Origin: Bacteroidales bacterium UBA6192 | GTDB lineage: Bacteria; Bacteroidota; Bacteroidia; Bacteroidales; F082 | Length of the DNA stretch: 64,000 nt | Assembly: GCA_002422725.1 (NCBI GenBank) | Contig: DITE01000007.1 | Span: 10,957 to 74,956 of the forward strand | Direction: 5' to 3' | Shown here: piece after piece, positions 10,486 to 16,981 of the stretch | How positions within the stretch are numbered: position 1 is the stretch's first letter | Layout of the letters: the number at the start of each line of letters is the position of its first letter | Notes under the pieces: generated by a model | What the model was told of the DNA's origin: nothing | Databases searched by the model: none | The model's input: the letters and a program-made list of their open reading frames with translations, nothing else | Made by a program: the position numbers and the translations under genes

Positions 10486-11481
10486 TTAATTTTTTAATTG
10501 ATTTAGTTTCCAGATTTCCCGATGTTTCATTCTTACCAGCGGTTGCAATGCCAGTTCTCCAATTTTTCCAATTTGCCTGCGCAGTTGTTTCAATTCTTCG
10601 AGTTTGGCACCAATATCAGGTTCAACAATCAGCGGAAACCCATTCTCCTTTAGCATCATGTTGCGCTTGGCTTTGATGCTAAGTTCCAGATAAACACTGA
10701 TATAATTGTAGAGATCGACTATTGCCTCGGAGCTAAAGTGTTTTCGTAATGACATCAAGTAATCCCCGGCTTTCGTGTGGGCAAATTTACCCTGCTGCAT
10801 CATCCTTAGCAACTCCACTTCATGGCTGAACTCAATTTCGAGCCAATCCTGCAAACTGTTGTTGCTCTTTTGAAAAACAAGCATAAATACGAGTGGTAAC
10901 ACAATAAAAATAAGCGCTGTTTGGATATATGGGTTCAAAAAGAAATGATTGAAACCACTATGCAGTATTATGGCTGTTAAAAAACCCGGGATAACTGCCA
11001 GAATTAAATGCTTATCACGCTGTATGCCATCAATAAGAATGATAGCAAATAAAGCCGTGCAGCCGCCATGCATCAAGGCAGTGCCGAAACCACGAAGTAT
11101 CCAGACTACTAACCCTGGCTGATGACCAAGAGCAAACATATAAAAAACGTTTTCGGCCAGCGCAAAACCTGCTCCTGCGGCAAAACCATAGACAGCTGCA
11201 TCCACTGCAAAGCCAATCTTTTTCCTGCTGATCAGAAAAAATACAATGAGTATTTTGCTCAGTTCTTCGGTAATCGGAGCAAGATAACGGCTGAATGTTG
11301 CAAAACCAATTGTCAGCTGACTGTTCAGCCATGTGTTGAGGTAATATGAAATCAATGCTGAAATCACTCCCCAGAATATGCATAATCCAAGCCTGCTTTT
11401 GCTCACCAGTTTAAAACTGTCGAGCAGAAACAAACCTGTTAAAAACAGTAAAACCGGCAAAATACTGAACACGATATGCAT
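10486..11481 (-). CDS. PrsW-family intramembrane metalloprotease with a C-terminal cytoplasmic extension
   Basis: Polytopic membrane protein with 'ITEELSKILIV' (EExxK), 'GFALAENVFY' and 'ALMHGGCTALFA'. I prefer the ATG at 11481 (MHIVFSILPVLL...) because the longer track ORF (to 11574) overlaps the upstream STAS gene. The last ~130 aa are soluble and of unknown function. Confidence 0.7.
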   Translation of the reverse strand: MHIVFSILPVLLFLTGLFLLDSFKLVSKSRLGLCIFWGVISALISYYLNTWLNSQLTIGFATFSRYLAPITEELSKILIVFFLISRKKIGFAVDAAVYGFAAGAGFALAENVFYMFALGHQPGLVVWILRGFGTALMHGGCTALFAIILIDGIQRDKHLILAVIPGFLTAIILHSGFNHFFLNPYIQTALIFIVLPLVFMLVFQKSNNSLQDWLEIEFSHEVELLRMMQQGKFAHTKAGDYLMSLRKHFSSEAIVDLYNYISVYLELSIKAKRNMMLKENGFPLIVEPDIGAKLEELKQLRRQIGKIGELALQPLVRMKHREIWKLNQLKN

Positions 11482-11509: not shown

Positions 11510-11836
11510 TTACTGGGATGCTGACTGCAGGTCAGGATAAATGGCAAATATGCTTGAAAAACCCGAAATATCAAATATTTCGCGAATGGTGGGCTGCAAA
11601 TTGCACAGCCTTAGTTTGCCTGCTGTAGCGGTTAGTTTTTTCTGAGCCATTAAAAACACCCTAAGGCCCGAACTGCTGATGTAATCGAGCTGGCTGCAAT
11701 CGACCACCAAATGGGCATGTTTTTCGGTCAATGGTAAAAGACTGGCTTCAAATTCACCAGCCGTGATGGTGTCGATGCGCCCCTGAACCCCAATAATGGC
11801 CGTGTTGCCTGAAATTGTTACGTTTACTTTCATCAT
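11510..11836 (-). CDS. STAS-domain anti-sigma-factor antagonist (SpoIIAA/RsbV-like)
   Basis: 108 aa. 'VVDCSQLDYISSSGLRVFLMAQKKL' is a typical STAS phosphorylation-loop context. Confidence 0.75.
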   Translation of the reverse strand: MMKVNVTISGNTAIIGVQGRIDTITAGEFEASLLPLTEKHAHLVVDCSQLDYISSSGLRVFLMAQKKLTATAGKLRLCNLQPTIREIFDISGFSSIFAIYPDLQSASQ

Positions 11837-12397
11837 CTTTAATTTTTGTGTTGGATATAAAGGATAGATATTAATGAATGCAATGGATTTGAATCTGGGT
11901 TACTCATAAAAATATACCAACAAATTATTTGATAATCAATTATTTGATCAGAGATAGTTTGTATATTTACAATGAATAAATCTATCATTCACAGAAATTA
12001 CACAACTCCTCTAAGCTTTTAAACTGAAAATCTGTCGAAAGTTAAGGAAAAAAATCTGGTTTCCTACTAAATACACCAATTAGTTTGAAAGAAATATTTG
12101 GCAATTGGTATGTCAGTTGATTTGTTCTTACCTGCCCAAGACGTTTTACGGATTGGTTGAGTTACAATAAGGGGGGGCAAGCTGGAGTTTATGCCGGAGG
12201 ACGAGCGGGTGAACACCTGAATTTAAGCGATAGTTCCTATTCAATTTAGTCGTAATGAAATCTGCATTTCGCAATGAATATTTCATCGTCTTTCACTTTA
12301 TATCAGTCTGTGTTCAACATCAATTCTGTTTGTCTTGTGTGCAGCACTTTTGCAGCCTATCAAAATTAAACATTATTCTCACCTCCAACATATTGCT

Positions 12398-13600
12398 TTA
12401 ATTGATTAATAATTTCTGTCTAAGTTTTGATCCATTTGTGACGAATTCTATAACATACATACCCTGTTTAACCGAGGAAATATCTATCATATTTGATTGT
12501 ATTTCTTTGTGGAGAACATTTTTCCATAGACAATCATAGATGTTTAATTCTTTAAAGGATTCGATGTCTTCTGTTTTAATAAAAAGCTTATTGGTAGCCG
12601 GGTTGGGATAAAAAACAACTTCATGTTGGGCAATATTCTCATAAATTGTTACAGGTTCTAAAGTTCTGAATAAGTCTGCATAAACGAAATATGAAACGGC
12701 ATATAGTTGACCTTCCGGGTGAAAAGCTACACCCTGAAAGTACTTTCCGGTCCAATTTGGAGTTACTTCATTCCATGTCATGCCATTATCATAAGTGCTG
12801 AAAATCCCATTTTCACTTGCTGCAGCAACTTCATCATACTCATTTATCGATAATGATAAAATATAATGGTTATACAATACAATATTCCAGGTTTGGCCAT
12901 CGTCAACTGATTTGTAAATTCTACCCGTACCCATTGTCCAGTGGCCTTTTGTTCCGGCATAAATCTCATTTTCTGAGGTTGTAACAATAGAGGAAACAAA
13001 ATGGTAATTCAAACCAGCCAAATACCAAGTTGATCCACCATCGTCTGATTTATATATACCACCAGGGCTTACATCTCCGTTATAACTAATGCTACCCGCA
13101 AAAAGACTTCCTGAGGTATTTCCAGTTATGGATTCTACAGATTCAGTGTTAGACAAATCCAGAACTTCTGTCCAGCTTACTCCTCCATCAGTTGAGCGAA
13201 ATATACCACCAAAGTTTCCAAAGAAGATATAGCCATTTTCAGATTCATATATGGAAATAATATTAGATGCTTCTTCCGTGATATAGAGCAAATCCCAACT
13301 ATTGTTGCCTTCGTATTTAAATATACCTGAACCTGTACCGGCAAACAAATTGCCTGAAGTAGAAACATGAATACTCCAAATCGGATATTGTCCAAGCCCA
13401 ATGTATTCCCAGCTTGCGCAATGATCATTTGAATGATACACCCCATTGCCTGTCGCAAGATAGATATCATTGCCATAAAAACAGATTGTCCCTGCCCCAA
13501 TTGTGTCGGGTAATGTCACCTGTTCCCAGTTGTATTGCGCATATGCGGTCAATTGAGTAATTATGATAAGGCTTAGAAATATGTATTTTACAGTTTTCAT
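12398..13600 (-). CDS. BNR/sortilin-like beta-propeller protein with T9SS C-terminal sorting domain, tandem copy 1
   Basis: Repeated SxDxGxxW-type motifs (STDGGVSW, SDDGGSTW, VDDGQTW, YDNGMTW). C-terminal 'VVFYPNPATNKLFIKTED...GMYVIEF...KLLIN'. I prefer the ATG at 13600 (MKTVKYIF..., signal peptide) over the track start at 13645. Confidence 0.75.
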   Translation of the reverse strand: MKTVKYIFLSLIIITQLTAYAQYNWEQVTLPDTIGAGTICFYGNDIYLATGNGVYHSNDHCASWEYIGLGQYPIWSIHVSTSGNLFAGTGSGIFKYEGNNSWDLLYITEEASNIISIYESENGYIFFGNFGGIFRSTDGGVSWTEVLDLSNTESVESITGNTSGSLFAGSISYNGDVSPGGIYKSDDGGSTWYLAGLNYHFVSSIVTTSENEIYAGTKGHWTMGTGRIYKSVDDGQTWNIVLYNHYILSLSINEYDEVAAASENGIFSTYDNGMTWNEVTPNWTGKYFQGVAFHPEGQLYAVSYFVYADLFRTLEPVTIYENIAQHEVVFYPNPATNKLFIKTEDIESFKELNIYDCLWKNVLHKEIQSNMIDISSVKQGMYVIEFVTNGSKLRQKLLIN

Positions 13601-13642
13601 ATCAATTCTGTTTTTCTTGTGCTCAGTACTTTTACAGCCTAT

Positions 13643-13650
13643 CAAAATTA
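13643..13650 (-). promoter_or_regulatory. Bacteroidota-type -7 promoter box TAATTTTG upstream of BNR/T9SS copy 1
   Basis: It matches the TAnnTTTG consensus and lies ~43 nt upstream of the ATG at 13600. The identical box is at 14925-14932 upstream of copy 2, with orphan copies at 12361-12368 and 15898-15905. Confidence 0.4.
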
Positions 13651-13679
13651 AACATTATACTCACCTCCAACATATTGCT

Positions 13680-14882
13680 TTAATTGATTAATAATTTTTG
13701 TCTAAGTTTTGATTCATTTGTGACGAATTCTATAACATACATTCCCTCTTTAACTGTGGAAATATCTATCATATTTGATTGTATTTCTTTGTGTAGAACC
13801 TTTTTCCCCAGACAATCATAGATATTTAATTCTTTAAAGGATTCGATGTCTTCTGTTTTTATAAATAGTTCATTTGTAGCCGGGTTGGGATAAAAAACAA
13901 CTTCATGTTGGGCAATATTCTCATTAATTGTTACAGGTTCTAAGGTTCTGAATAAGTCAGCTTCTTCGAAATGTGAAATAGCATAGAGTTGACCCTCCGG
14001 GTGAAAAACTACTTCCTTATAATAACTTCCAGCCCAATAGGGTGTAATATTGTCCCAGTTTATGCCTTTATCATATGTGCTGAATATCCCATTTTCGCTT
14101 GCTGCCGCGACTTCATCATACTCATTTATCGTTAATGATAAAATATAATGGTTATACAATACAATATTCCAGGTTTGGCCATCGTCAACTGATTTGTAAA
14201 TTCTGCCCGTACCCATCGTCCAGTGGCCTTGTGTTCCGGCATAAATCTCATTTACAGAATTTGTAACAACTGATGAAACAAAATGGTTATTTAATCCAAC
14301 TAGAGACCATGATTTTCCACCGTCATCAGATTTATAAATACCCCCCGGACTAACAGCTCCGGAATAACTTGTGCTACCCGCGAAGAGTATTCCCTCATCA
14401 TTTTCCGTTATGGATTTTACAACTTCCATGTACAACAAATCGAGAACTTCTGACCAAATTGAACCTCCATCGGTTGATCGATAAATACCCCCCCAATTAC
14501 CAAAGAAAATATAACCACTGTCAGATTCATATATGGAGATAATATTAGATGCTTCTTCTGTTATATAGAGCAAATCCCAATTATTATTGCCTTCGTATTT
14601 AAATATTCCTGAACCTGTACCGGCAAACAAATTGCCTGAAGTAGAAACATGAATACTCCAAATCGGATGTTGACCTAGCCCAATATATTCCCAGCTTGTG
14701 CAAAGATCATTTGAATGATACACCCCATTGCCCGTCGCAAGGTAAATATCATTGTCATAAAAACAGATTGATCCTGCCCCAATTGAATCGGGTAATGTTA
14801 CCTGTTCCCAGTTGTATTGCGCATTTGAGGTTAACTGGGTAATTAGTATTAGAACTATAAATATGTATTTTACAGTTTTCAT
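13680..14882 (-). CDS. BNR/sortilin-like beta-propeller protein with T9SS C-terminal sorting domain, tandem copy 2
   Basis: 400 aa and mostly identical to copy 1 by eye. It has the same signal peptide, the same BNR-type motifs and 'VVFYPNPATNELFIKTED'. Confidence 0.75.
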   Translation of the reverse strand: MKTVKYIFIVLILITQLTSNAQYNWEQVTLPDSIGAGSICFYDNDIYLATGNGVYHSNDLCTSWEYIGLGQHPIWSIHVSTSGNLFAGTGSGIFKYEGNNNWDLLYITEEASNIISIYESDSGYIFFGNWGGIYRSTDGGSIWSEVLDLLYMEVVKSITENDEGILFAGSTSYSGAVSPGGIYKSDDGGKSWSLVGLNNHFVSSVVTNSVNEIYAGTQGHWTMGTGRIYKSVDDGQTWNIVLYNHYILSLTINEYDEVAAASENGIFSTYDKGINWDNITPYWAGSYYKEVVFHPEGQLYAISHFEEADLFRTLEPVTINENIAQHEVVFYPNPATNELFIKTEDIESFKELNIYDCLGKKVLHKEIQSNMIDISTVKEGMYVIEFVTNESKLRQKLLIN

Positions 14883-14924
14883 TTCAATTCTGTTTTACTT
14901 GTGTGCAGCACTTTTGCAGCCTAT

Positions 14925-15009
14925 CAAAATTAAACATTATTCTCACCTCCAATATATTGTATTCAAATTTTTCTCCAATCGCATAGAATGTAATCTTCGA
15001 AAGGTTCAA
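14925..15009. repeat. Direct repeat, left copy, flanking the HEPN/NTase cassette
   Basis: By hand alignment, this 85-nt segment matches 15898-15982 with 4 mismatches. The first 41 nt are identical. Confidence 0.85.
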
Positions 15010-15097
15010 GATGCTCAAATGGGGGTTTGTTCAGGAGGGAATTGACAGCAGGGTAGGCGAGTGGAAAACTCCTGATTCTTGTACGTTTCTGGCTTTT

Positions 15098-15409
15098 TTA
15101 TTTTATTTCTATTCCAGTTTTCACTATTTCATAAACAAAAGGATTGTCCGAAAGAAAATCTTGTCTGGATAAAGGATGCGGTTCAATCCTAGAATCGAAC
15201 TTTGCGGCTAATAACATTAATTGAACTTGTATATCAAATTTGTCAGAATCCCTGAGATTATCAATAATCAATGCAATATCAATATCACTTTCAGGTCTTT
15301 GATTGTTTTTAGCAAATGAACCAAAAAGATACGCAGTAACAAATCCTGGTGTCTGATTTGCTACGCTTGAAATATATTGCCGAATTATTGAATCAGTTCT
15401 TTTATCCAT
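15098..15409 (-). CDS. Minimal nucleotidyltransferase (MNT-type antitoxin-like)
   Basis: 103 aa. 'YLFGSFAKNNQRPESDIDIALII' matches the GSx(n)DxD nucleotidyltransferase signature. It overlaps the upstream HEPN gene by 25 nt. Confidence 0.75.
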   Translation of the reverse strand: MDKRTDSIIRQYISSVANQTPGFVTAYLFGSFAKNNQRPESDIDIALIIDNLRDSDKFDIQVQLMLLAAKFDSRIEPHPLSRQDFLSDNPFVYEIVKTGIEIK

Positions 15410-15789
15410 TGTCTGTTAATTTTAAGGTTCTCAATCCAGATTGCTGTAAACTCTGGTGTACATTTTTGTTGAAAACTCATTTTATAATCGTCATATCTTG
15501 CATTAATATTAAATGCTGTTGTGGTCACGAAAAATAATTTTTGATCGTCAGATAATTCCAAATCACATTTTTCAGCAAGTCGCAATAAATTATGAAGAAA
15601 GGGGGGATAGTCATTTTTTGTCTTTACGTACAAAGCCTTTAATAATTTTTCAATCATTAAATGGCCTATAAATAATGCCCAATTGAATTTTTTACTTTCA
15701 AACATGGCAATCATTGTATCAAAGTCATCATCTGAACTGTCTGACCAATACCTTATCAACTTATCCTTATCAAAATCCCGTTTTTCCAT
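15385..15789 (-). CDS. HEPN-domain protein (toxin-like partner of the nucleotidyltransferase)
   Basis: 134 aa, all-helical. 'IEKLLKALYV', 'FLHNLLRLAEK' and 'FNINARYDDY' resemble HEPN (PF05168-like) proteins that pair with minimal NTases. Confidence 0.65.
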   Translation of the reverse strand: MEKRDFDKDKLIRYWSDSSDDDFDTMIAMFESKKFNWALFIGHLMIEKLLKALYVKTKNDYPPFLHNLLRLAEKCDLELSDDQKLFFVTTTAFNINARYDDYKMSFQQKCTPEFTAIWIENLKINRQWIKELIQ

Positions 15790-15897
15790 TTTTCAAATGT
15801 ACTAAATTTTCATTAAGGCCTTAACATACATGGCAGTGTCTTTTTCGCCATGACGCAAAATTACTTGCTAAACACACCCCTATATCATTTAGCTTAC

Positions 15898-15982
15898 CAA
15901 AATTAAACATTATTCTCACCTCCAATATATTGTATTCATATTATTCTCCAATCACATGGAATGTAATCTTCGAAAGGTTCAA
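15898..15982. repeat. Direct repeat, right copy, flanking the HEPN/NTase cassette
   Basis: See the left copy. It contains 'caaaatta' (TAATTTTG on the minus strand) about 110 nt upstream of the HEPN start codon. Confidence 0.85.
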
Positions 15983-16201
15983 ATGGAGGTTGAATCAGTA
16001 AATAAAGATTATTTCTTTCACAAAGCATTGATGGTTTTGCCAACCCTATCAAATAGTACGGCACAATTGATCCTCCCACCTTTTAGGTTGGGCTTAAGAA
16101 AAAAGAGAGCTTGAAGAATAGCTTATTTTCTGAAGATCAGAATAGAATGAAAAACACAGACAATGTGCTTAAATGGAATTCTTTACCGGATGCACGAAAG
16201 C

Positions 16202-16657
16202 TTAATCCCTGTAAATTTTCACATTAACAGCATTCATGCCCTTCTGGCCCCTGACCACCTCATAGGTAACTTTATTGTTTTCCTTAATGGGCTCAATAAG
16301 ACCGTTAATGTGCACGAAAACATCCTGTTGGGTGGCAGAATCCCTGATGAAACCGAAACCTTTTGAACTGTCGAAAAAAGTAACTATTCCAATCTTTATC
16401 AGATCGGCAGGATCGGCAGGGGCACTCTTTCTGACTCCAATTTCAATGTCGTCAAGATTAACTTTCGTACGCTGTAACTGATCTGGCGGAATGGAACTTA
16501 TCTGGCCGAACTCGTCTACATAGGCAATCATGCTGTCCAGATCGCCACTTCCTTTGTTTTCTTTGCGATCAGAACGCTTTTGTTCTTTCTCTTTTCGTTT
16601 TTTTTCCTTTTTGATCCGGGTTTCTTTTTTTCCAAATGTTTCGCGTGGGGCTCCCAT
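16202..16657 (-). CDS. Cold-shock-domain protein with Lys-rich N-terminal extension
   Basis: The C-terminal 65 aa, 'GIVTFFDSSKGFGFIRDSATQQDVFVHINGL...YEVVRGQKGMNAVNVKI', is a CSD with RNP1-like KGFGFI and RNP2-like VFVH. The N-terminal ~85 aa include 'KKETRIKKEKKRKEKEQKRSDRKENK'. Confidence 0.85.
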   Translation of the reverse strand: MGAPRETFGKKETRIKKEKKRKEKEQKRSDRKENKGSGDLDSMIAYVDEFGQISSIPPDQLQRTKVNLDDIEIGVRKSAPADPADLIKIGIVTFFDSSKGFGFIRDSATQQDVFVHINGLIEPIKENNKVTYEVVRGQKGMNAVNVKIYRD

Positions 16658-16981
16658 AGAGTGGTTTTAATAAGTAATTGGTTTCATTCGTATTCCCGGG
16701 TGCTGCACCGAAAAGCAGCGTTTTCAAACGCACCGGAAATGTGTGCAAATGTACGATATTATTTTGATATAATCCTTAGGTGTTCATGTTCAGTAATTTC
16801 TGATAATGTGTTTGTTTAGTCTGCGAACAGCACTCATGTGGTCACTTGTCGCTAAAATGCCTATCTTTGCAGCTCAATTAATTGAAAACGGCAAGTTGTT
16901 AGCCGCAATATTATCAATACATTTTTCGCCGGTGCAGAAAATGCAACGTCTTTTCCGGCCCTATTTTACCTAAAAAATTTC

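Follow-up and report, generated by a model that had tools for sequence, protein, structure and literature searches.

A HEPN-nucleotidyltransferase gene pair between copies of a recombinase 3′-end and promoter module is a probable mobile cassette of an integron-like gene-capture system in Bacteroidales

The stretch of DNA analysed here (64,000 nt of contig DITE01000007.1 from Bacteroidales bacterium UBA6192, positions 10,957 to 74,956; hereafter, the window) contains two overlapping genes, one for a HEPN protein and one for a minimal nucleotidyltransferase (MNT), that are enclosed by a pair of long direct repeats. When this locus is placed beside the systems that it most resembles, it is seen to be a variant of a partly described kind of system. 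The repeats are members of a genome-wide family that consists of the 3′ end of a recombinase gene and a promoter, and the HEPN-MNT pair is probably a mobile cassette situated at a decayed platform of a Bacteroidales gene-capture system that resembles integrons and rAID clusters.

Among the closest described systems are the rAID-1 clusters of Ross et al. (2019, bioRxiv 10.1101/471110), whose search of Bacteroidales genomes found them in more than half. These clusters have a 5′ XerD-like recombinase gene and co-directional, low-GC arrays with intergenic repeats that were called "reminiscent of integrons", and they were defined by a recombinase whose identity to B. fragilis BF9343_RS08045 is 44% or higher and that is followed by at least two co-directional genes with a GC content of at most 41% (bioRxiv 10.1101/471110). 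The second point of reference is the integron (PMC8618304 and bioRxiv 10.1101/2022.02.28.482270). Almost no integrons were reported in Bacteroidetes with IntegronFinder 2.0. The cargo of the locus also recalls the HepT/MntA pairs of type VII toxin-antitoxin (TA) systems, which are taken up below with the two proteins. A further likeness is to the pdif modules of Acinetobacter plasmids, which are small, often TA modules that are bounded by short Xer sites and occur in changing contexts. The pdif modules differ in that they rely on 28-bp XerC/XerD sites of alternating orientation and on the Xer proteins of the host, without long folded sites, a dedicated recombinase or a promoter module.

All features of the locus that are given below with window coordinates lie on the minus strand. 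A repeat search of the window identifies a 92-nt direct repeat with 93% identity and a spacing of 973 nt, of which we refer to the left-hand copy (14918-15009) as P2 and to the right-hand copy (15891-15982) as P3. The first-pass annotation of this DNA had described a slightly shorter pair with four mismatches in 85 nt, and blastn agrees (14925-15009 versus 15898-15982, 85 nt at 95.3% identity). It was also correct that the copies enclose only the HEPN and nucleotidyltransferase genes, with no other substantial open reading frame (ORF) between them, and that TAATTTTG boxes lie on the minus strand at 14925-14932 and 15898-15905. A 42-nt core of the repeat is found again at 12354-12395 and 13636-13677, where it heads the units of a 1282-nt tandem duplication of a BNR/type IX secretion system (T9SS) gene. 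The structure of the window recurs at 99-100% identity in at least five independently assembled metagenome contigs and in one NCBI metagenome-assembled genome, and thus, it is not an artefact of assembly. Several assemblies break within the repeat, leaving the cassette as a separate contig of about 1 kb. Chance and assembly artefact were both considered as causes of the repeats and rejected.

Searches with nhmmer and with a sequence-only covariance model built from the copies (R1) reveal that the repeat is a dispersed family with at least seven copies in the genome of the window (G000, whose contigs are given here without a genome prefix). In addition to P2 and P3, which score 94.6 and 81.5 bits against R1, there are five full-length copies (C46:23577, C22:13804, C22:14780, C53:88132 and C28:11789), each about 70% identical to those of the window. 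Beyond this genome, copies occur in one of the same genus (G001) and in members of other genera in the family (eight in G016, and others in G046, G043 and G052). Every copy examined has a co-oriented gene 100-250 nt downstream, and the genes headed in this way are mutually unrelated, with examples encoding a PD-(D/E)XK nuclease, a peptidase MA, a DUF4440 protein and a protein with PD40.

The origin of this module can be read from loci in which it overlaps the stop codon and 3′ end of a gene for a 481-500-aa tyrosine recombinase with PF00589 and PF13495 domains (C53, G043, G052, G016:C83 and L070-L072). The start of the module corresponds to the codons for IYTHVSNLNLSKITSPGDLIKI followed by the stop codon, and in copies that lack a recombinase gene, tblastn detects coding relics, which extend over 43 codons in the C22a copy. 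In the window, the relic at P2 (15010-15025, CCCCCATTTGAGCATC) continues in frame as HLSILNLSKIT, compared to THVSNLNLSKIT in the intact gene, while the vestige at P3 (15983-15999, CTGATTCAACCTCCAT), when aligned with intact recombinase 3′ ends, matches their IYTHV segment and has a 9-nt deletion relative to P2. Given the overlap with the recombinase stop and these coding relics, the module is the last ~20 codons of an Xer-like recombinase gene plus an outward promoter behind that gene. P3 comprises the final recombinase codons (TTGAACCTTTCGAAGATTAC at 15963-15982), the stop region and the promoter, and P2 likewise comprises the final codons and promoter and heads the second BNR/T9SS copy. The TAAYTTTG box of the module is a Bacteroidetes-type −7 box, a promoter element of the kind known from Bacteroides.

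This family origin bears directly on the model put forward in the first-pass annotation, in which the BNR gene has the 92-nt segment for its native promoter, a local duplication produced the two copies, and the TA pair, captured between them, is expressed from the right-hand one. It is true that the 42-nt core precedes all BNR copies here as well as the paralogue on C46, and that the HEPN ATG (15789) has a −7 box 109 nt in front of it. However, the segment contains coding sequence for a recombinase C-terminus and stands before unrelated genes, the more complete copy is P3 and not the one on the BNR side, a MazEF-like pair on C22 is bracketed in the same manner without a BNR gene, and the HEPN-MNT cassette has a promoter of its own that is conserved across organisms. 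The origin of the family largely refutes the model, and we regard it as very unlikely. The repeat is therefore not simply the promoter of the BNR gene. What survives of the proposal that recombination placed the pair within a duplicated promoter segment is that the pair is a discrete unit which recombination placed between two promoter-bearing copies; the part that does not hold is that the segment is native to BNR.

A version of the platform that is intact in appearance is found at C53:86701-96836, although the contig ends inside the array (the locus L045 covers 85000-93000). There, the gene for a 481/499-aa Xer-like tyrosine recombinase is followed by a promoter tail of ~180 nt with a terminal block and then by three co-directional cassettes, which carry in order a PD-(D/E)XK gene, the Res and Mod genes of a type III restriction-modification system and a gene for a 447-aa BNR/Asp-box secreted protein. 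An attC-like site follows each of the three (89546-89690, 94957-95102 and 96688-96823). When C53 is compared to six other genomes, homology begins with a small Zn-ribbon gene, itself divergent, spans the recombinase gene and extends ~177 nt past its stop, and it ends at the same point everywhere, after CAAAGTGGAAATATATGCCATAGGGGTGCGTTTAGCAAGTAGTTG, with unrelated sequences beyond. This boundary from conserved to variable sequence is sharp, falling at GTAGTTG in seven loci. The order of recombinase, cassette and attC-like site is also observed in G025, G071 and L075, and in G029, where the first cassette is a HEPN-MNT pair, so that the arrangement is present in five genomes.

In the window, a counterpart of the terminal block lies at 15859-15888 (ATGATATAGGGGTGTGTTTAGCAAGTAATT), directly after the −7 box of P3. 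It agrees with the CAAAGTGGAAATATATGCCATAGGGGTGCGTTTAGCAAGTAGTTG-type block at 26/30 positions, a match that none of the shuffled sequences equals (0/2000), and the same stretch was found independently by blastn in G016:C76. P2 has no such block, which makes P3 the more complete of the two copies. From its position at the end of all homology, the block is a candidate insertion site that would act as an attI.

Compared to rAID-1, these loci are alike in having a 5′ recombinase of the XerD family, co-directional downstream genes with a GC content below that of the surroundings, repetitive sequences between genes that recall integrons, and a motif that is conserved immediately after the stop codon of the recombinase gene. 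As in the definition of rAID-1, the C53 array is co-directional and the HEPN, MNT and two BNR genes of the window are all on the minus strand with a GC content of 31-37%. A first difference is in the cargo, which by Pfam consists here of PD-(D/E)XK, type III restriction-modification, HEPN-MNT, MazEF and secreted BNR genes and not of immunity genes for type VI secretion systems, although no search was aimed at immunity-gene sets. The second is in the recombinase, which carries an N-terminal extension of ~220 aa and is represented in the window by a stump only.

The likeness to integrons is to sedentary chromosomal integrons, to clusters of attC sites lacking integrases (CALINs) and to degenerate platforms that keep the promoter Pc. 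In both cases, the recombinase gene has a promoter and an insertion site next to it, the latter being here a candidate one; the cassettes hold one or two ORFs and end in folded imperfect palindromes with AAC...GTT cores; and assemblies break at the sites. TA pairs are common two-gene cassettes in integrons, some with their own promoters. In contrast to integrons, there is no IntI-specific domain in the recombinase, whose gene points the same way as the cassettes and has the promoter behind it rather than in its 5′ part, and stumps of the recombinase 3′ end are repeated together with the promoter within arrays. A canonical IntI with a match over the TIGR02249 cut-off is not found anywhere in the genome, and the closest PDB relatives of the C53 recombinase are archaeal XerA proteins, ahead of VchIntIA. 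Homologues of this recombinase are present in 133/301 Bacteroidales genomes, with 40-47% identity in the catalytic half.

The attC-like sites were located with a hidden Markov model (HMM) that was built from elements of ~135 nt with pairing ends, which flank a HEPN-MNT pair (HEPN 89% identical) on a metagenome contig (L150/L152), and that was iterated once on the genome. In all, no fewer than 15 sites of ~140 nt are found in the genome of the window, with YAAC as the 5′ core and (C)GTT as the 3′ core. In an RNAalifold analysis of 17 sequences from eight genomes or contigs, these sites share a 16-pair long-range stem with compensatory changes in 15/16 pairs, and their architecture is that of integron attC sites. 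The repeats and the attC-like sites have no matching RNA family in Rfam, which was searched with positions 12000-16700 of the window and four other loci. When the modules were folded as single strands, the z-scores were −1.4 to +0.7, with no sign that the 92-nt repeat is a folded site. A weak promoter copy that resembles the module is found at C87:48878-49436 (L119:3883-4437), upstream of a gene for a 104-aa HigA-like helix-turn-helix protein, and part of an attC-like site comes immediately after this gene.

The boundary of the HEPN-MNT cassette connects these sites to the window. Within the 5′ part of the cassette (15790-15858), the conserved DNA starts at GCGTCATGG (15848-15856), and the same start follows attC-like cores in the homologous cassettes of L150 and L155. 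Written with a slash at the boundary, the junction is GCAAGTAA/TTTTG-CGTCATGG in the window (the letters before the slash belonging to the platform block), AAAACG/TTTGGGCGTCATGG in L150 (AAAACG/TTTGG) and CAAACG/TTAGGGCGTCAATGG in L155 (CAAACG/TTAGG). The three cassettes have different neighbours on both sides. Thus, by virtue of this common start point, the same left boundary is observed after two attC-like sites and after the attI-like block.

The cassette also carries a −7 box of its own, TACATTTG (15794-15801), which lies 4 nt before the ATG and is conserved in L150, L155, L143/144 and L153/154. With this box, which is kept in homologous cassettes of other organisms, the cassette has no need of a borrowed promoter, as had been suggested for its expression. 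In total, three candidate −7 boxes stand upstream of HEPN: that of P3 at 15898-15905, the cassette's own, and a third TAATTTTG at 15856-15863 that is formed exactly at the junction of block and cassette. The HEPN family is large, with more than 2000 proteins at E ≤ 1e-5, of which 120 are at least 69% identical. Many of its members are on contigs of ~1 kb, as expected of repeat-flanked cassettes. A paralogous HEPN-MNT pair (HEPN 44% identical) is located in the same genome at C55:24164-24871 (L049), directly after an attC-like site, and a TATATTTG box of its own lies 7 nt upstream of the ATG.

We consider the following account of the locus to be the probable one. HEPN-MNT, a cassette with its own promoter, would have been inserted at the attI-like block of a platform, with the join at the G/TT core position, in a reaction that a recombinase of the C53 type may have catalysed. 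The recombinase gene of that platform would since have been lost except for its last codons, and P3 would represent these codons together with the promoter and the terminal block. P2 and the BNR gene would form another unit, in which a second stump-plus-promoter module stands at the head, and the 93% identity of P2 and P3 over 92 nt would reflect either common descent from one module or gene conversion. Finally, the attC of the window's cassette would have decayed. The cassette tail (15026-15099) begins with ~22 nt after the MNT stop (AAAAAAGCCAGAAACGTACAAG at 15078-15099) that, by visual alignment, resemble the start of the attC-like sites following MNT in L150 and L155, and a predicted CAGGAG/CTCCTG stem (15069-15074 / 15032-15037) comes next. 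Judging from this resemblance, the tail is probably a vestige of a decayed or truncated attC.

Several observations weigh against this account. With filters off, the attC HMM has no match in positions 11800-16300 of the window, including the 3′ end of the HEPN-MNT cassette, and the junction between block and cassette departs from the ideal product of attI × attC recombination by two substitutions and one missing base. There is no recombinase gene within the window. The C53 recombinase aligns with the integron-integrase profile over positions 8-177 and 240-313 only, having 20 aa where IntI has ~62 positions, and it is therefore without the IntI-specific insertion (profile positions 178-239) that is held to be essential for attC recombination and integron function (PMC8138268). 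Among copies of the module, the 5′ limits of the recombinase relics range from ~5 to more than 40 codons, a variation that ordinary deletion fits equally well. With respect to mobility at the locus itself, all same-species metagenome contigs carry the cassette and none has an empty site. A wider comparison to genomes of the same genus and family, with the CSD, BNR, DEAD-box and PrsW proteins as queries, found only the helicase, at 61-63% identity and with no synteny.

The architecture of the window is not unique, as a bracket of the same kind exists at C22:13700-15880 (L047:3199-5380). Here, 172-nt module repeats with 87% identity, 976 nt apart, enclose a gene for a 78-aa antitoxin-like protein and one for a 126-aa PemK/MazF toxin, which together form a MazEF-like pair. 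The downstream module heads the DUF4440 gene, an attC-like site (15734-15873) is located one gene upstream, and there is no BNR gene on the contig.

Direct repeats of 92 and 172 nt around inserts of ~0.9 kb are also the product of a single crossover, and a RecA-dependent single crossover between modules is a serious rival that would give the same repeat structure. In such a Campbell-type insertion, a circle containing one module and HEPN-MNT, made by RecA through recombination of two modules that flanked the pair at another place, would have integrated into the module before the BNR gene and duplicated it, without a site-specific recombinase. The dispersed modules would provide portable homology, and the lack of a recognisable attC at the cassette end is as this reading would have it. 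The C22 copies are moreover no closer to each other (87%) than C22b is to C53 (86%; C22a versus C53, 79%), which fits exchange among members of the family. What it leaves unexplained is that the terminal block is found in P3 alone, that the cassette start is shared with homologues that follow attC-like sites elsewhere, and that a block and a module are joined on C46. Serious as it is, we judge this rival to be unlikely.

The junction in question is at C46:18480-23705 (L048), before the third BNR/T9SS paralogue, where a 19-nt promoter core, a leader, the terminal block, a diverged P2-like module and the shared 5′ untranslated region (UTR) occur in this order. The score of this module against P2 is reached by 0/3000 shuffles. 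From this order, the stump-plus-promoter module travels with the BNR gene and, in this instance, stands directly after the block. Beside this paralogue are a gene for a 1041-aa restriction-modification protein of the MmeI/Eco57I type and a module copy that heads the PD40 gene.

As modules are again in tandem on C22 and C46, a different history can be drawn in which the window holds two platforms in tandem that decayed independently. The 92-nt identity would then be due to gene conversion only, and HEPN-MNT would have been the first cargo of the upstream platform, never inserted between repeats. The 93% patch is indeed set in flanks that are far more diverged or cannot be aligned, and the relics differ in length among copies. 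Nevertheless, this history has a large overlap with the cassette account and differs from it in the course of events only, it still requires HEPN-MNT to reach the block as a cassette, and it leaves the origin of whole platforms in tandem unexplained. We find it quite unlikely.

A more tentative proposal is that the system makes promoter-bearing cassettes of its own. Recombination at a pseudo-core in the 3′ end of the recombinase gene (CATGTAAG/CAAC TTGAA) would excise units of stump, Pc and gene, and these would be reinserted at attI-like blocks. Such a process would explain why modules recur in arrays, why they bracket TA cassettes in the window and on C22, and why one lies directly after the block on C46. 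We offer it as a possibility that is, at present, somewhat on the unlikely side.

The spreading of modules is a trait of a sub-lineage and not of the whole recombinase family, as the 3′ flank is not repeated in G294, a complete genome with a distant full-length homologue of the recombinase. A metagenome scan for TTGAAYCTTTCRAAGATTAC matched 23 stretches, with L126 alone being a true relative that combines recombinase and module, and a scan of the genome collection for the recombinase yielded seven loci, mainly on short contigs. At G001:C2:232032-232647 (L116:6032-6648), a truncated recombinase with a module encodes a protein that is 98% identical over residues 332-499, and its DNA has 91% identity over 681 nt to that of the window's genome. 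The nearest match to the DEAD-box helicase in G001 is only 40% identical, and housekeeping genes in general are far more diverged than the platform. This near-identity of the platform against the divergence of the housekeeping genes points to its recent horizontal transfer.

Downstream of P2, the 5′ UTR and the gene for BNR/T9SS copy 2 (400 aa, with a Por_Secre_tail domain) occupy 13680-14917. They are followed by the second unit of the tandem duplication (12319-13679), consisting of the 42-nt core, the UTR and BNR/T9SS copy 1 (ORF 12398-13645). An orphan third copy of the core and BNR 5′ UTR lies downstream of copy 1 at 12319-12397, from which it would follow that the ancestral BNR gene was itself flanked by copies of the core. 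The sequence after the orphan is unrelated, and the orphan points to a cluster of STAS, PrsW and ECF sigma genes. Over 12.0-16.2 kb, which includes both the BNR duplication and HEPN-MNT, the GC content drops to 31-37% from 39-45% in the flanks, which fits an acquired segment.

The cargo of the cassette is a HEPN gene (15385-15789, 134 aa) and an MNT gene (15098-15409, 103 aa) that overlap by 25 nt. The same overlap is present in every homologous locus examined. The HEPN protein matches PF05168 over residues 13-111 (51.4 bits against a cut-off of 22, E = 1.5e-13), and an alignment of ten homologues with 41-88% identity shows the invariant residues G42-H43, E47, K51, H66, N94, N96 and R98-Y99-D100. 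The Rx4-6H motif is absent, as no histidine lies 4-6 residues after any arginine in this alignment. HEPN domains of the PF05168 type have been described in which an aspartate replaces the histidine of the motif and a conserved histidine elsewhere possibly forms an alternative active site (Anantharaman et al., PMC3710099). Sequence searches of the PDB with the HEPN protein and its profile gave a marginal match to TM0613 only (E = 0.25). The MNT protein scores above the cut-offs of both Polbeta (PF18765, E = 4e-13) and NTP_transf_2 and contains the GSx10DxD motif (G30-S31-x10-D42-I-D44), and from this motif it is probably active as a nucleotidyltransferase.

These proteins share with HepT/MntA of type VII the overlap of HEPN and MNT genes, the GSx10DxD motif, an association with defence islands and, probably, mobility (PMC7641770, PMC4621449, PMC3710099). 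The pair departs from HepT/MntA in three features. HEPN is of the PF05168 type without Rx4-6H, having R98-Y-D-D-Y and the invariant H43 and H66 instead; it is encoded first, whereas MNT lies upstream in HepT/MntA; and MNT scores 45.2 bits against the NCBIfam MntA model, below the cut-off of 60. The gene order had been noted correctly in the first-pass annotation, but it is no oddity of this locus, as it is the same in all homologous loci examined. By analogy, the pair may work like HepT/MntA, and it would then be a putative TA system in which MNT neutralises HEPN, possibly by nucleotidylylation.

Surveys have reported almost no integrons in Bacteroidetes, yet the window together with C53, C22 and C46 displays a working-looking gene-capture platform, with a recombinase that is Xer-like and has no IntI domain, attC-like sites that are folded, and defence, TA and secreted-protein genes carried in cassettes. 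The TA cassette that lies exactly at the terminal block offers a concrete candidate for the insertion site, with a precise junction of block and cassette. For annotation, wherever a small TA or defence module of Bacteroidales lies between direct repeats, these should be compared to the 3′ ends of recombinase genes and to attC-like sites before a promoter duplication is called. Recombinase stumps with their promoter have been copied around the genome as gene heads, both within and between arrays, and this is a possible route for the distribution of promoters. If the proposal of self-made promoter cassettes is true, an Xer-like enzyme without an IntI domain would run a cassette system that is structure-specific and, in addition, spreads promoters across the genome.

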